From: Escherichia coli
GTDB lineage: Bacteria; Pseudomonadota; Gammaproteobacteria; Enterobacterales; Enterobacteriaceae
Reading direction: 5' to 3' (one strand)
Length of the DNA: 64,000 nt
Assembly: GCF_048403405.1 (NCBI RefSeq)
Contig: NZ_CP183129.1
Shown piece after piece: positions 4,200 through 62,032 of the stretch. Each line of letters begins with the position of its first letter. Position 1 is the stretch's first letter. The notes below the pieces were generated by a model that saw only the letters and a program-made list of their open reading frames with translations, made no database searches and had not been told where the DNA came from. The position numbers and the translations under genes are program-made.

Positions 4200-5567
4200 T
4201 TAATAAAATAGCGTGATTGTGGCAATCATATTCACCACGAAACCGACTGCCATGGGGATCGCTGTCCGCTTCACTACCGCAAAAGGCGAAACGCCTGCAA
4301 TTCCTGACGTAACGACCACCACCGCAGTAATCGGCGAAACAGCGCGCGCTAGCGTCGTGGCAAAATGCATCGGCATAATCATTACAACCGCTGGCACATG
4401 TAGTCCGGCTGCGATATTCGGAATAAGACTGGCAAATGACATAAACGGCGCATTGCCTGAGCCCATCACAATGGCACAAATGGCAATGACCAGCGCCATA
4501 ATAATCATCACGCCAATACCGCCCAGACCAGAATGCTCCGCACCCCTGATAACCGCATCGACAGTGCCAATCGTCGTTAAGCCTTTCGCAAATATTTCAC
4601 CCGCGACCACCAGCGTTACCACGTTGGCAAACTGCGTACCCATGCCGTCAAAAAACGCCTGCACATCATCCATTGTTTCACGCAAGTTATGCTTGCGGAA
4701 GAACTCAACAAACATCGTCACCGTCAAACTCAGTAACATCACCACCACCAGATGCAGTTCTGACTGCATCAGCCCGACGTGGGCAAGGAACAGCGAGCCG
4801 AGCATCAGGATTAACGGCATCACCGGTAAAATGGCGTAATAGAGCGGTGGGACATTATCGAGAGCTTTTTGCTCTGCCTGTTCGTGATTGATATTTTTAT
4901 CTTTTTTGTCGAAAGCGCGTTGCACGAAAAAGTGGGAGATCGCCACCGAGATAATGACGCAAGAGGCGACCGGAAGCTGGTAGTGGAAGAAGTAAGTGGC
5001 AATTTTCATTCCTGCGACCTGGGCAGCAAAAATGGAGTTCGTTTCCAGAATCCCCCACTCAATGGACATCGTGGTTGCGATAACCGCCACCGCAGAGAGG
5101 CGACTTACTCCCAGACTCACCAGCGTCGGAAATAAGGTGACCATCAGCAACATACCCAGACCGGAGGCGCTGGTAATAAACTGCGCCATGATTTGGCCGA
5201 TGACGTAAGTTGCCGACAGAATAATATACGGCGAGCGAATGAGTTTTAACGGGCGGCTTAACAAGCTCACCATCGCGCGACTTGCCCCTATGCGCTCCAT
5301 ATAGCGGGCATAACCGCCCACTGCCATAATCGACAGCCCCAATCCGGCAATGCGGTTGGACAGCATGCGCAGGATTTCATTATAAATATCGACGATCAAG
5401 TAGCCGCTGCTTTTGGCGGGATCGAGCACACCACCGAACCCTAACCAGACACCGCACATCATCAGGAAGATACCTGCGACAGCCAGCACCACCTGAGGTT
5501 TGTAGTTTTTCAGGATCAAATAGCCCATCGTAATTAATACGATGACAGATATAATTATGCCGAACAT
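4200..5567 (-). CDS. dcuD: Putative anaerobic C4-dicarboxylate transporter DcuD (DcuC family)
   Basis: Multi-pass membrane protein; internal ATG at 5567 gives 455 aa starting [25 protein letters not shown]; ORF track start at 5585 is 6 codons longer. Confidence 0.9.
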
Positions 5568-20383: not shown

Positions 20384-22720
20384 ATGAAGCAAATTCGTCT
20401 GCTGGCGCAGTATTATGTTGACCTGATGATGAAGTTAGGTCTGGTGCGCTTCTCAATGTTGCTGGCGCTGGCCCTCGTCGTTCTTGCCATTGTGGTACAA
20501 ATGGCGGTAACCATGGTGCTGCATGGTCAGGTCGAAAGCATTGATGTTATTCGTTCTATCTTCTTTGGTTTGCTGATTACGCCGTGGGCGGTCTACTTTC
20601 TATCGGTGGTCGTCGAGCAACTGGAGGAGTCACGACAACGTCTGTCACGACTGGTGCAAAAACTGGAGGAGATGCGCGAGCGCGATTTGAGCCTCAACGT
20701 TCAGTTAAAAGATAATATTGCCCAGCTAAATCAGGAAATCGCCGTTCGTGAAAAAGCGGAAGCAGAACTGCAGGAAACCTTCGGCCAACTGAAAATTGAA
20801 ATTAAAGAGCGCGAAGAGACACAAATTCAGCTCGAACAGCAATCCTCATTCTTACGTTCCTTCCTTGATGCTTCACCCGACCTGGTTTTTTATCGTAACG
20901 AAGATAAAGAGTTTTCCGGCTGTAACCGCGCGATGGAGCTGCTGACCGGAAAAAGCGAAAAACAACTGGTTCACCTGAAACCTGCTGATGTTTACTCACC
21001 GGAAGCCGCTGCGAAAGTCATTGAAACCGATGAAAAGGTGTTCCGTCATAATGTGTCACTGACCTATGAGCAGTGGCTGGATTATCCCGACGGGCGCAAA
21101 GCCTGTTTTGAAATCCGTAAAGTGCCGTACTACGACCGCGTGGGTAAACGTCACGGTTTGATGGGTTTTGGTCGCGACATTACCGAGCGTAAGCGGTATC
21201 AGGATGCGCTTGAACGCGCCAGCCGCGACAAAACGACGTTTATTTCCACCATCAGTCACGAATTGCGTACACCGCTGAATGGTATCGTCGGCCTGAGCCG
21301 CATTCTGCTGGATACCGAACTCACCGCCGAGCAGGAAAAATATCTCAAAACCATCCATGTTTCGGCCGTCACGCTCGGGAATATCTTCAACGATATTATC
21401 GACATGGATAAGATGGAACGGCGTAAGGTCCAGCTTGATAATCAGCCGGTTGATTTCACCAGCTTCCTTGCCGATCTGGAAAATCTCTCCGCATTGCAGG
21501 CGCAACAAAAAGGATTGCGCTTTAATCTGGAGCCTACGCTGCCATTACCGCATCAGGTCATTACCGACGGGACGCGTTTACGGCAGATCCTGTGGAATCT
21601 CATCAGTAACGCCGTCAAATTCACCCAGCAAGGCCAGGTTACCGTGCGCGTGCGCTACGATGAAGGCGATATGCTGCATTTTGAAGTGGAAGACTCTGGT
21701 ATCGGCATTCCGCAAGATGAGCTGGATAAAATCTTCGCCATGTATTACCAGGTGAAAGACAGTCATGGCGGTAAACCTGCCACTGGCACCGGTATTGGTC
21801 TGGCCGTTTCTCGTCGTCTGGCGAAAAATATGGGCGGCGATATTACGGTTACCAGCGAACAGGGCAAAGGTTCAACCTTTACGTTGACGATCCACGCACC
21901 GTCGGTAGCAGAAGAGGTCGATGATGCGTTTGATGAAGACGATATGCCTTTACCGGCGCTGAATGTGCTGCTGGTGGAAGACATTGAACTGAACGTGATT
22001 GTCGCGCGTTCTGTGCTGGAAAAATTAGGTAACAGCGTTGATGTCGCCATGACCGGCAAGGCGGCGCTGGAGATGTTTAAACCGGGCGAATACGACCTGG
22101 TATTGCTGGATATTCAGTTGCCAGATATGACCGGGCTGGATATCTCTCGTGAACTGACGAAGCGTTATCCGCGCGAGGATTTACCGCCGCTGGTGGCCTT
22201 AACCGCTAACGTGCTGAAAGACAAGCAAGAGTACCTCAATGCTGGAATGGATGATGTGCTGAGTAAGCCGCTTTCTGTTCCGGCGCTAACCGCGATGATC
22301 AAGAAATTCTGGGATACCCAGGATGATGAGGAGAGTACGGTGACGACAGAAGAGAACAGTAAATCAGAAGCATTGCTCGATATTCCCATGCTGGAACAGT
22401 ATCTCGAACTTGTAGGACCGAAGCTGATCACCGACGGGTTAGCGGTGTTTGAGAAGATGATGCCGGGCTATGTCAGCGTGCTGGAGTCGAATCTGACGGC
22501 GCAGGATAAAAAAGGCATTGTTGAGGAAGGACATAAAATTAAAGGTGCGGCGGGGTCAGTGGGGTTACGCCATCTGCAACAGCTGGGTCAGCAAATTCAG
22601 TCTCCTGACCTTCCCGCCTGGGAAGATAACGTCGGTGAATGGATTGAAGAGATGAAAGAAGAGTGGCGTCACGACGTAGAAGTACTGAAAGCGTGGGTGG
22701 CAAAAGCCACTAAAAAATGA
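20384..22720 (+). CDS. arcB: Aerobic respiration control sensor histidine kinase ArcB
   Basis: 778-aa ORF with N-terminal TM segments, PAS, HisKA/HATPase, receiver and HPt domains; recognised ArcB sequence. Confidence 0.96.
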   Translation: MKQIRLLAQYYVDLMMKLGLVRFSMLLALALVVLAIVVQMAVTMVLHGQVESIDVIRSIFFGLLITPWAVYFLSVVVEQLEESRQRLSRLVQKLEEMRERDLSLNVQLKDNIAQLNQEIAVREKAEAELQETFGQLKIEIKEREETQIQLEQQSSFLRSFLDASPDLVFYRNEDKEFSGCNRAMELLTGKSEKQLVHLKPADVYSPEAAAKVIETDEKVFRHNVSLTYEQWLDYPDGRKACFEIRKVPYYDRVGKRHGLMGFGRDITERKRYQDALERASRDKTTFISTISHELRTPLNGIVGLSRILLDTELTAEQEKYLKTIHVSAVTLGNIFNDIIDMDKMERRKVQLDNQPVDFTSFLADLENLSALQAQQKGLRFNLEPTLPLPHQVITDGTRLRQILWNLISNAVKFTQQGQVTVRVRYDEGDMLHFEVEDSGIGIPQDELDKIFAMYYQVKDSHGGKPATGTGIGLAVSRRLAKNMGGDITVTSEQGKGSTFTLTIHAPSVAEEVDDAFDEDDMPLPALNVLLVEDIELNVIVARSVLEKLGNSVDVAMTGKAALEMFKPGEYDLVLLDIQLPDMTGLDISRELTKRYPREDLPPLVALTANVLKDKQEYLNAGMDDVLSKPLSVPALTAMIKKFWDTQDDEESTVTTEENSKSEALLDIPMLEQYLELVGPKLITDGLAVFEKMMPGYVSVLESNLTAQDKKGIVEEGHKIKGAAGSVGLRHLQQLGQQIQSPDLPAWEDNVGEWIEEMKEEWRHDVEVLKAWVAKATKK

Positions 22721-22832
22721 CCCCGGCTAGACCGGGGTGCGCGAATACTGCGCCAACACCAGGGAAATCTTGGCTGCGCCGTAAATTATTATGATGAGTT
22801 ACAAGGGCACAGCACTGTTTTTCAGGCTGCAC
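22712..22832 (-). ncRNA. arcZ: Hfq-dependent small RNA ArcZ (SraH/RyhA), convergent with arcB and overlapping its 3' end
   Basis: Minus-strand sequence ...CCUGAAAAACAGUGCUGUGCCCUUGUAACUCAUCAUAAUAAUUUACGGCGCAGCCAAGAUUUCCCUGGUGUUGGCGCAGUAUUCGCGCACCCCGGUCUAGCCGGGGUCAUUUUUU recognised as ArcZ; the terminator U-run overlaps the arcB stop codon; the 5' end is approximate. Confidence 0.85.
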
Positions 22833-22949
22833 GCAGTTAAGATAGCAAAACTTAAATGATTTGTTACATGAATCAGTTAAATGTGTGATGCGTAGCATTT
22901 TTATTAAAAAAATTAATGTGTTTCAGTCAATTGCGAAAGGATGATCACA

Positions 22950-23603
22950 ATGAAGAAAATTGGCGTAATTCTGAGCGGATGCGGCGTCTATGACGGTTCT
23001 GAAATTCATGAAGCGGTGTTGACGTTGTTAGCTATTTCACGCAGCGGTGCGCAGGCGGTCTGCTTTGCACCGGATAAGCAGCAGGTTGATGTTATCAACC
23101 ATTTAACGGGCGAAGCGATGACGGAAACGCGCAATGTGCTGATTGAAGCGGCACGAATAACGCGCGGTGAAATCCGTCCTCTGGCCCAGGCCGATGCCGC
23201 TGAACTGGATGCGTTGATTGTGCCGGGGGGTTTTGGCGCGGCGAAGAATTTAAGCAATTTTGCCAGTCTTGGTAGCGAATGCACCGTTGACCGTGAATTA
23301 AAGGCGCTGGCACAAGCGATGCATCAGGCCGGAAAACCGCTTGGTTTTATGTGTATTGCCCCGGCGATGCTGCCGAAAATTTTCGATTTCCCGCTGCGTT
23401 TGACCATCGGTACTGATATCGATACCGCAGAAGTGCTGGAAGAGATGGGCGCGGAGCATGTGCCGTGTCCTGTCGATGATATCGTGGTTGATGAAGACAA
23501 TAAGATTGTCACCACCCCGGCATATATGCTGGCGCAGAACATTGCAGAAGCGGCGAGCGGCATTGATAAGCTGGTTTCCCGCGTGCTGGTCCTGGCGGAA
23601 TGA
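22950..23603 (+). CDS. elbB: DJ-1/PfpI-family glyoxalase-like protein ElbB
   Basis: ATG at 22950 gives 217 aa [21 protein letters not shown]...; ORF track start 22941 is 3 codons upstream. Confidence 0.9.
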
Positions 23604-44300: not shown

Positions 44301-44547
44301 AATCTCGCGCTAACAACCTGGAATCGAGCCGTCATACTACGGCGCAACGCCCTATAAAGTAAACGATGACCCTTCGGGAACTTCAGGGTAAAATGACTAT
44401 CAAAATGTGAATTGTAGCTGACCTGGGACTTGTACCCGGGTCGGTATTTTTTTGCTTCTGGTCCCGGTGAGGAGTTATGCCGGGCAGGCCGAACAGCCGG
44501 GGTGGGTGAAGACTTGCCCCATCAGGAATATTCAAGAGGTATAACAA

Positions 44548-51104: not shown

Positions 51105-51191
51105 GCCGAGGTGGTGGAATTGGTAGACACGCTACCTTGAGGTGGTAGTGCCCAATAGGGCTTACGGGTTCAAGTCCCGTCCTCGGTACCA
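51105..51191 (+). tRNA. leuU: tRNA-Leu (anticodon GAG)
   Basis: 87-nt sequence GCCGAGGTGGTGGAATTGGTAGACACGCTACCTTGAGGTGGTAGTGCCCAATAGGGCTTACGGGTTCAAGTCCCGTCCTCGGTACCA with long variable arm and CCA end; 15 bp after secG. Confidence 0.95.
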
Positions 51192-54971: not shown

Positions 54972-55048
<77 letters not shown>

Positions 55049-55170
55049 CTTTCCCTTAGAGTCCTTTTTCAAATATACTGTGAAGACTTCGGCCTTCGTA
55101 GTGGGATTTGAAAAAATCCTTCTGGAAAGTGCTCCAGACCGCAGTTGCGGTTATAGGGTTCAGTTATATA

Positions 55171-55196
55171 AAGCCCCGATTTATCGGGGTTTTTTG
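55171..55196 (+). terminator. Hairpin plus U-run in metY-rimP leader (partial terminator/attenuator)
   Basis: aagccccgatttatcggggttttttg. Confidence 0.65.
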
Positions 55197-55254
55197 TTAT
55201 CTGACTACAGAATAACTGGGCTTTAGGCCCTTTTTTTATGTCTTGGGGGTGGGC

Positions 55255-59930: not shown

Positions 59931-60010
59931 TTGTAGGCCGGATAAGGCTTTTACGCCGCATCCGGCAGCCGTTGCCTGATGCGACGCTCGCGCGTCTTAT
60001 CAGGCCTACA
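59931..60010. repeat. REP (palindromic unit) elements in infB-rbfA spacer
   Basis: Two REP-like palindromes: GTAGGCCGGATAAGGC...GCCGCATCCGGCA and GCCTGATGCGACGCTCGCGCGTCTTATCAGGCCTAC. Confidence 0.85.
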
Positions 60011-61475: not shown

Positions 61476-61841
<366 letters not shown>

Positions 61842-61856: not shown

Positions 61857-61887
61857 GAAAAGGGGGCCTGAGTGGCCCCTTTTTTCA
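61857..61887 (+). terminator. Rho-independent terminator after rpsO
   Basis: gaaaagggggcctgagtggccccttttttc. Confidence 0.85.
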
Positions 61888-61935
61888 AGCTGACGGCAGC
61901 AATTCACTGGAAACTAATGTATTGTTGCTATGAAT

Positions 61936-62032
61936 GATCTTCCGTTGCAGAGGTTCGCGCGGCTAATGAGAGGCTTTACCCACATTGGGCTGGGTTAGGG
62001 TTGTCATTAGTCGCGAGGATGCGCAGAAGATC
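61936..62032 (+). promoter_or_regulatory. pnp 5' leader long imperfect stem-loop (candidate RNase III autoregulatory processing site)
   Basis: Inverted segments GATCTTCCGTTGCAGAGG ... CGCGAGGATGCGCAGAAGATC flanking about 60 nt in the rpsO-pnp spacer; the location matches the known pnp autoregulatory leader; pairing was not computed. Confidence 0.5.

Follow-up and report, generated by a model that had tools for sequence, protein, structure and literature searches.

Tail-to-tail overlap of the ArcZ sRNA terminator with the 3′ end of arcB in Escherichia coli and its conservation among Enterobacterales

Introduction

GadY and gadX of Escherichia coli form a cis-encoded sRNA/mRNA pair that overlaps at the 3′ ends and displays regulatory cross-talk; in both this pair and that of SraG, the mapped transcripts are complementary over tens of bases. 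SraG, the subject of PMC5029454, lies antisense in rpsO-pnp; it is encoded in the same 64,000-nt stretch of E. coli DNA that was analysed here and is referred to as the window (contig NZ_CP183129.1, assembly GCF_048403405.1). In contrast to GadY/gadX and SraG, only an annotated overlap of 8–9 nt is certain for arcZ/arcB, and the documented roles of ArcZ are mainly exerted in trans.

ArcA is phosphorylated by the sensor kinase ArcB. Phosphorylated ArcA represses arcZ, ArcZ represses arcB, and it is 'speculated' that the arcB mRNA serves as an antisense RNA against ArcZ (PMC11331407); reciprocal regulation of arcB and ArcZ is likewise reported in PMC4152358 and in reviews. ArcZ depends on Hfq and is cut by RNase E to a 56-nt active form; its main documented roles in trans concern rpoS, flhDC and others (PMC11331407). 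According to a Klebsiella study, the name ArcZ derives from the partial overlap with arcB (PMC11322559), and Dubois et al. (2024, PMC11331407) state that arcZ 'usually overlaps ... by ten bases' with arcB. As both the overlap and the mutual repression are described in the literature (PMC11331407, PMC4152358, PMC11322559), the arrangement is already known, which the initial annotation of this locus, made from the sequence alone, had rightly pointed out. Neither a mapped arcB 3′ UTR nor a bidirectional terminator at arcZ was found in the literature searched.

Results

Identity of arcZ and arcB

The RNA gene convergent with arcB (Table 1) was matched by the Rfam model RF00081 on the minus strand at 22832..22725 with 120.1 bits (E 1.5e-27, gathering score 66). 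The match takes in model positions 1–106 of 106 and represents the sole Rfam family found across the 15-kb stretch searched; it stops 13 nt short of the arcZ end because the model omits the 3′ half of the terminator. In strain MG1655, arcZ (b4450) is annotated at 3350577–3350697 (+) and arcB (b3210) at 3350689–3353025 (−), resulting in an overlap of 9 nt. The window resembles MG1655 in the 121-nt length of the gene, its position between arcB and elbB, the 9-nt annotated overlap and the terminator, and a gap-free alignment yielded 120 of 121 identical bases. At nt 5 (window position 22828), the only mismatch, the window carries A where MG1655 has G, which converts a G-U into an A-U pair in the 5′ stem and, as judged from the fold, strengthens it. 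Two more SNPs relative to MG1655 are located nearby, a synonymous one in arcB (22684) and one in the arcZ–elbB spacer (22895). The product of the convergent gene scores 1483.1 bits against the NCBIfam equivalog NF008302 (cut-off 838), with residues 1–778 aligned to profile positions 1–779. Both genes thus carry the names that the initial annotation had given them, and the interval 22712–22832 coincides with the annotated sRNA gene.

Table 1. Features of the arcB–arcZ–elbB locus in window coordinates
Feature	Position	Strand	Basis
arcB CDS, sensor histidine kinase ArcB, 778 aa + TGA	20384..22720	+	ORF list, NF008302, RefSeq
Final arcB codons AAA AAA (Lys777-Lys778)	22712..22717	+	Sequence; complement is the ArcZ U6 tail
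arcB stop codon TGA	22718..22720	+	Sequence; complement UCA lies between ArcZ stem and U-run
arcZ (full-length ArcZ/SraH/RyhA, 121 nt)	22712..22832	−	Rfam RF00081, MG1655 b4450 annotation, alignment
Processed active ArcZ, 56 nt	22712..22767	−	Length from PMC11331407; cut ...CCAAGA↓UUUCCC read in sequence
ArcZ Rho-independent terminator stem-loop (ACCCCGGU-CUA-GCCGGGGU)	22720..22738	−	Terminator scan, MFE fold, covariation
Invariant seed core UUCCCUGGUGUUGGCGCAG	22748..22766	−	Exact 19-mer used as search pattern
Inferred arcZ promoter	22839..22867	−	Sequence read against annotated 5′ end
elbB, next gene on arcB strand	22950..23603	+	NCBIfam NF008747, 357 bits; annotation

The region 22500–23000 was matched in 5416 of 5426 complete E. 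coli genomes, in several of them at 100%, and in 5294 of these 5416 the identity over a 76-nt core reaches 99% or more. RefSeq records identical across the region agree on the annotation of arcB; arcZ is unannotated in the PGAP-annotated E. coli records that were checked. Since these records omit arcZ and the Rfam model lacks its last 13 nt, the overlap is easily missed.

Transcription of arcZ was taken to start at G 22832, the annotated 5′ end. Read against this position, the putative promoter consists of a −35 element GTAACA (22867–22862), a 17-nt spacer and a −10 element TATCTT (22844–22839). A consensus scan reported no sigma-70 promoter for arcZ, the inferred site falling under the threshold with 8 of 12 matches. 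The 15-mer ArcA box GTTAATTAAATGTTA had no match in the whole window with up to three mismatches allowed, a result that is uninformative because ArcA sites are degenerate.

The sequence of arcZ retains the predicted RNase E cut context ...AAGA↓UUUCCC intact. RNase E is said, in work of Chao and colleagues from 2017, to prefer RN↓WUU, which GA↓UUU of ArcZ fits. From 22766–22748 onwards, the conserved 3′ seed module UUCCCUGGUGUUGGCGCAG...GCGCACCCC is present. The columns flanking the seed core do not vary across the 94 distinct sequences aligned; the invariance of the 19-mer itself among loci is given by construction, as it served as the search pattern. The alignment shows no conservation of the 5′ half of ArcZ.

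A 62-aa open reading frame at 22710..22898 (−) runs in frame with the GUG at +1 of ArcZ and stays open throughout the sRNA. We did not accept it as a peptide gene: the ATG precedes the transcription start, the stop codon is found 2 nt beyond the 3′ end of ArcZ, a 40-codon open frame is expected by chance at about 0.15, and the 5′ half of the RNA shows the lack of conservation just described.

The ArcZ terminator and the end of arcB

On the plus strand, arcB ends at 22700–22720 with ...GCA AAA GCC ACT AAA AAA TGA, directly followed by CCCCGG-CTAGA-CCGGGG up to 22737. The inverted repeat at 22720–22738 (ACCCCGG-CTAGA-CCGGGGT) reads ACCCCGGTCTAGCCGGGGT + CATTTTTT on the minus strand, and the terminator as a whole reads ACCCCGGUCUAGCCGGGGU-CA-UUUUUU. 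That it reaches the arcB stop codon, and that its U-run complements the AAAAAA just before the TGA, had been the central observations of the initial annotation. Both hold at the level of single bases: the stem, from 22738 to 22720, includes and pairs the third base of the stop codon, and the U-run mirrors 22712–22717. With respect to the tail of ArcB, a change of AAAAAATGA to AAGAAGTAA would be silent for the protein and would break the U-tract.

A consensus scan of 22300–23100 found a single strong terminator-like site, the ArcZ stem, with 8 pairs of which 6 are G-C, and no terminator-like site on the plus strand. The U6 run exists on the minus strand only; on the plus strand, UGCGCGAAUACU / TGCGCGAATACT comes after the stem. 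Because the arcB-sense side is devoid of a U-run, the terminator is one-directional.

A strong 3′ end at MG1655 position 3350696 (+) is recorded in the Term-seq data tables of Adams et al. (2021) under the label 'internal arcZ, antisense arcB'. Its flank, ...GGGGTCATTTTT followed by TAGTGG, places the end at the fifth U, that is window position 22713. The comparison with published 3′ end mapping that had been suggested for this locus is thus in agreement, and the overlap of ArcZ with the arcB coding sequence amounts to 9 nt by annotation and 8 nt by the Term-seq end. In the 94 distinct sequences of the alignment, 99.7% of the stem cells are paired, as against 28–44% in a control with the 3′ partners slid. 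Three stem pairs are changed on both sides from G-C to A-U (45 cells), and the pair A42-U62 is invariant. The compensatory changes in the stem and the mapped 3′ end show that the ArcZ terminator is far beyond chance.

Conservation among Enterobacterales

Relatives of the locus were collected with the exact 19-mer seed core, using one genome per species, which retrieved at least 120 loci. From the loci listed, four chance matches outside Enterobacterales without arcB nearby (L018, L056, L066 and L081), a second Mixta copy and one truncated locus were left out, leaving 114 with a convergent arcB tail. As an exact 19-mer was required, the species sample is biased, and all counts given for it apply among the matches listed. 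Within these limits, arcB-linked loci were retrieved in about 40 named genera of Enterobacterales.

Among the matches listed, 91 of the 114 loci display the canonical geometry, in which ArcB ends in Lys-Lys, the stop codon abuts the stem and the overlap measures 9–11 nt. They belong to 32 genera, ranging from Escherichia to Yersinia, Photorhabdus, Proteus, Providencia, Edwardsiella and Erwinia. Overlaps of 9, 10 and 11 nt occur in 15, 39 and 37 listed species, respectively, and the stop codon of the canonical loci is TGA or TAA. Elsewhere among the listed loci, the overlap is absent, with gaps of 3–58 nt (seven Pantoea loci, Mixta and Chimaeribacter), the genes abut exactly at 0 nt (one further Pantoea locus and Hafnia), or only 1–2 nt are shared (Morganella, Pluralibacter, Superficieibacter, an unclassified Enterobacteriaceae strain and two Pantoea). 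Two listed cases are odd, one being a frame variant that extends into the hairpin loop and the other a degenerate MAG. Whereas Dubois et al. (2024, PMC11331407) named only Pectobacterium carotovorum as non-overlapping, our survey adds most Pantoea, Mixta, Chimaeribacter and Hafnia (0 nt or less), together with Morganella, Pluralibacter and Superficieibacter (2 nt).

The stem, the triplet TCA or TTA and a run of 5–9 T are kept in 114 of 114 listed loci, including the 23 in which arcB stops elsewhere; the triplet between stem and T-run is TCA in 83 and TTA in 31 of them. On the protein side, the 91 canonical loci among those listed have 53 different ArcB tails when the last six residues are compared, all with an invariable Lys-Lys. 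Residue −3 tracks the length of the U-run in the listed loci: T8 goes along with Glu or Gln, T7 with Gly, Arg, Thr and others. None of the ArcB-like representatives outside this group, which have 39–62% identity and came from a protein library with 1.8 billion entries, ends in Lys-Lys. Since Lys-Lys is fixed and the other residues of the tail are free, ArcB merely reads the U-run as Lys-Lys and the adjoining triplet as TGA or TAA; and since the stem, TCA/TTA and T-run are kept even where arcB stops elsewhere, the constraint lies on ArcZ. Within this sample and as judged by sequence comparison, the constrained partner is the ArcZ terminator, of which the Lys-Lys end of ArcB is a by-product. The retention of TCA/TTA in loci whose arcB stops elsewhere may be intrinsic to ArcZ or inherited, rather than evidence of coupling.

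Relatives without ArcZ

Three ArcB homologues with 45–62% identity (loci L124–L126) were found to be ArcZ-less, and Rfam detected no ArcZ at these outgroup arcB loci at E values up to 0.01. Here, arcB converges with an OmpR-type response-regulator gene located 41–84 nt away, and a hairpin between an A-run and a T-run, read by eye, corresponds to a two-way terminator. The terminator scan flagged one of the three hairpins, the minus-strand reading of L126, and missed the others because it carried their stems on into the A and T runs at either side. In L126, the T-run of the convergent terminator also spans the arcB stop codon. The window shares with these bidirectional terminators a G+C-rich hairpin right after the arcB stop codon and an A-run that templates the convergent U-tail; in contrast to them, it is devoid of the arcB-sense U-run, and the partner is an sRNA gene instead of a response-regulator gene. 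The Enterobacterales arrangement therefore looks like the outgroup layout minus the arcB-side U-run and with an sRNA as partner, a resemblance rather than demonstrated ancestry.

Where arcB transcription may end

In the window, arcZ lies antisense inside the 229-nt spacer between arcB and elbB. The arcB–arcZ–elbB layout with antisense arcZ in the spacer is found in all 77 related loci that reach elbB; in each of these, elbB is encoded on the arcB strand, at a median distance of 232 nt downstream. Both T-runs of at least four between the arcB stop codon and elbB are preceded by a weak stem or none, and marginal arcB-sense terminator sites occur in only 10 of the 77 related loci. By these motif searches, arcB lacks a recognizable intrinsic terminator of its own upstream of elbB. 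The Term-seq tables contain no arcB-strand 3′ end within MG1655 3349181–3367641; because arcB is weakly expressed, this absence does not count as support.

The duplex of the shared 9 bp was calculated at −5.0 kcal/mol and that of the full ArcZ complement at −255 kcal/mol. According to the fold, the bases adjoining the overlap are tied up on both RNAs in G+C-rich hairpins. Duplexes of −31 to −38 kcal/mol predicted between ArcZ and the coding tail of arcB were rejected as meaningless, because the prediction takes no account of the strong hairpins within each RNA and matches U-rich to purine-rich sequence anywhere. The initial annotation had described the locus as a cis-antisense overlap; complementary bases are indeed shared, but with only 8–9 nt and so weak a duplex, the overlap by itself cannot underlie the published antisense regulation. 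As the overlap is too short and weak for a cis effect and arcB has no terminator of its own, we infer, from the missing terminator motif only, that arcB transcription probably reads through across arcZ. Rho could stop arcB shortly past its stop codon.

Discussion

We consider it very probable that the 3′ end of arcZ lies tail-to-tail with that of arcB, with the constraint acting on ArcZ, and that a cis effect is likely to arise by read-through or interference. ArcZ is transcribed leftwards from 22832 on the minus strand, and its U-tail is templated by the final Lys codons of arcB, so that the two genes share 8–9 bp dictated by ArcZ. In the proposed sequence of events, transcription of arcB would continue over arcZ. 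The resulting 3′ extension of the arcB mRNA would be fully complementary to ArcZ and might allow long antisense pairing, and/or the polymerases on arcB and arcZ might interfere head-on. Either extension pairing or polymerase interference would probably account physically for the reciprocal repression.

A more far-reaching proposal, which we regard as doubtful, is that the geometry of arcB stop codon, stem and U-run was selected rather than inherited, in that it forces arcB read-through and thereby couples both genes. Such selection would fit the stop codon being wedged between stem and U-run in about 80% of the sampled Enterobacterales (among the matches listed), as well as the missing arcB terminator and the ordinary two-way terminator that ArcZ-less relatives have at this place. 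If true, loss of the arcB-side U-run would have made arcB transcription obligatorily cross arcZ, and transcription of the sensor kinase gene would be physically coupled to 3′-end formation, stability or promoter firing of ArcZ. As a side effect, the sRNA terminator would write the C-terminal Lys-Lys of the kinase, and the length of the U-run would set its third-last residue.

There is little to recommend the notion that the hairpin is a shared bidirectional terminator for arcZ and arcB, the overlap being a compaction without antisense consequence. The stem is a near-perfect palindrome that folds on the plus strand too, and the ArcZ-less relatives have an A-run, hairpin and T-run directly after arcB that are shared with the convergent gene. 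However, the arcB-sense stem runs into UGCGCGAAUACU instead of a U-run, such a run is restored in none of the sampled Enterobacterales (among the matches listed), and the published reciprocal regulation of arcB and ArcZ (PMC11331407, PMC4152358) disagrees with an arrangement that has no antisense consequence.

The U-tail of Hfq-dependent sRNAs is their Hfq-binding 3′ end. This counts against the idea, highly improbable in our view, that the 8–9-nt overlap is itself a functional antisense element, with the ArcZ tail pairing to the arcB end and triggering decay or blocking translation termination. Conservation of the overlap in 91 of the 114 listed species would agree with such a function, but the shared duplex is weak, its neighbouring bases are held in hairpins on both RNAs, and ArcZ is kept with no overlap or with 0–2 nt in 23 of the 114, most Pantoea included. 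A chance terminator-like palindrome after arcB in a region that is not ArcZ is practically inconceivable and already refuted, given the Rfam E value, the near-identity to annotated arcZ, the conserved seed, the covarying stem and the mapped 3′ end.

The tail-to-tail reading with the constraint on ArcZ has practical consequences. When the 3′ end of arcB is deleted or tagged, ArcZ loses its terminator and U-tail, replacement of arcZ by a cassette disturbs arcB, and reads at the arcB 3′ end require strand information. One E. coli study chose a mutant in the −10 promoter element of arcZ, thereby sparing 'the overlapped arcB gene'. The overlap is part of the known ArcB/ArcA–ArcZ–RpoS switch, and the comparative data presented here only sharpen which of the two partners is constrained.

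Conservation and annotation of arcZ in E. coli

Within 300 bp around the sRNA gene the window differs from MG1655 at three single nucleotides. At position 22828, corresponding to ArcZ nucleotide 5, the window carries A versus G in MG1655, which turns a G-U pair of the 5′ stem into A-U; position 22684 is a synonymous Val GTA/GTG change in arcB, and the third difference, C/G at position 22895, falls in the arcZ-elbB spacer. A search of 5426 E. coli genomes with window positions 22500-23000 yielded 5472 matching places in 5416 genomes, one of these places being plasmid-borne; 10 genomes lacked a match. As places outnumber genomes, a few genomes harbour a second partial copy of this segment. The 76-nt core was found at 5417 places in E. 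coli genomes, again with a single one on a plasmid.

The gene itself (window 22712-22832) is annotated in MG1655. The E. coli records annotated by PGAP that were inspected do not have it in their feature tables, which give arcB and elbB as the sole genes under the match. The Rfam ArcZ model, comprising 106 positions, stops at window 22725; the U-tail and the 3′ arm of the terminator stem (22712-22724) fall outside it. Rfam-based coordinates therefore fall 13 nt short of the gene and hide its overlap with arcB. The remaining Rfam matches in the window are the usual E. coli content of this chromosomal region. An ORF of 62 aa is open across the whole ArcZ sRNA, but was rejected as a real gene and judged to have arisen by chance; its stop codon lies outside the ArcZ RNA, 2 nt past the 3′ end.

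Coordinates of features in the window and at related loci (L040, Mixta locus; L124-L126, outgroup loci lacking ArcZ)
Feature	Location	Strand	Source or remark
SraG	window 61858-62029	-	Rfam
greA leader	window 44331-44452	+	Rfam
S15 leader	window 61514-61628	+	Rfam
rimP leader	window 55137-55237	+	Rfam
naRNA4	window 59936-60006	+	Rfam
Two tRNAs	window 54972-55045, 51105-51188	+	Rfam
Mechanical ORF, 62 aa	window 22710-22898	-	in frame with ArcZ +1 GUG
Rho-termination region	window ~21948 (MG1655 3351461)	ArcZ-sense strand	inside arcB; published DirectRNA-seq
Second ArcZ 3′ module	L040:1744-1790	+	Mixta sp. Marseille-Q2659, contig NZ_CALNWY010000001.1, away from arcB
A-run/hairpin/T-run element	L124:3867-3946; L125:2459-2543; L126:3810-3852		arcB-response regulator spacer

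Antisense transcription beyond the ArcZ terminator

Published DirectRNA-seq with and without bicyclomycin places a Rho-termination region antisense to arcB, ~760 nt past the ArcZ terminator. Bicyclomycin raises the reads downstream of this region from 20 to 418 (Rho score 15.2, p 9.7e-69), and hence some transcription of the ArcZ-sense strand reaches deep into arcB. Inside arcB such transcription, which may start at the arcZ promoter, is therefore normally halted by Rho.

ArcZ-like and ArcZ-less loci in relatives

Sequence comparison of the second module in Mixta revealed a 19-nt seed identical to that of ArcZ, and GCGCACCCCG is likewise identical. The loop of its small hairpin is 3 nt shorter, and it has a terminator of its own, CCCGC-ATTA-GCGGG followed by T8, from which the UCA spacer is missing. 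An IS1 end, belonging to an element 99.5% identical to E. coli IS1, lies ~70 nt upstream, and an ORF beginning MKALTYHGPHRV follows directly downstream. Neither of the two Mixta ArcZ copies reaches the Rfam gathering score. The module may represent an ArcZ-seed paralogue.

At the ArcZ-less loci an OmpR-type response-regulator gene, possibly arcA, is convergent with arcB at a distance of only 41-84 nt. The two genes are separated by the A-run/hairpin/T-run element. In L126 this element has its start right at the stop codon of arcB (TAAAAAAGGGGCC...).

The ArcZ U-run and the ArcB C-terminus

Comparison of ArcB C-termini among the listed matches to the ArcZ seed core (L003-L121) demonstrates that the length of the ArcZ U-run fixes the third-last residue of the protein. 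With T8, the third-last codon is forced to end in AA, and the residue is Glu in 36 of these listed loci and Gln in one; with T7 the codon ends in A, and Gly (14), Arg (13), Thr (9) and others occur. The ArcB tail is a minor example of a protein C-terminus shaped by the terminator of an RNA.
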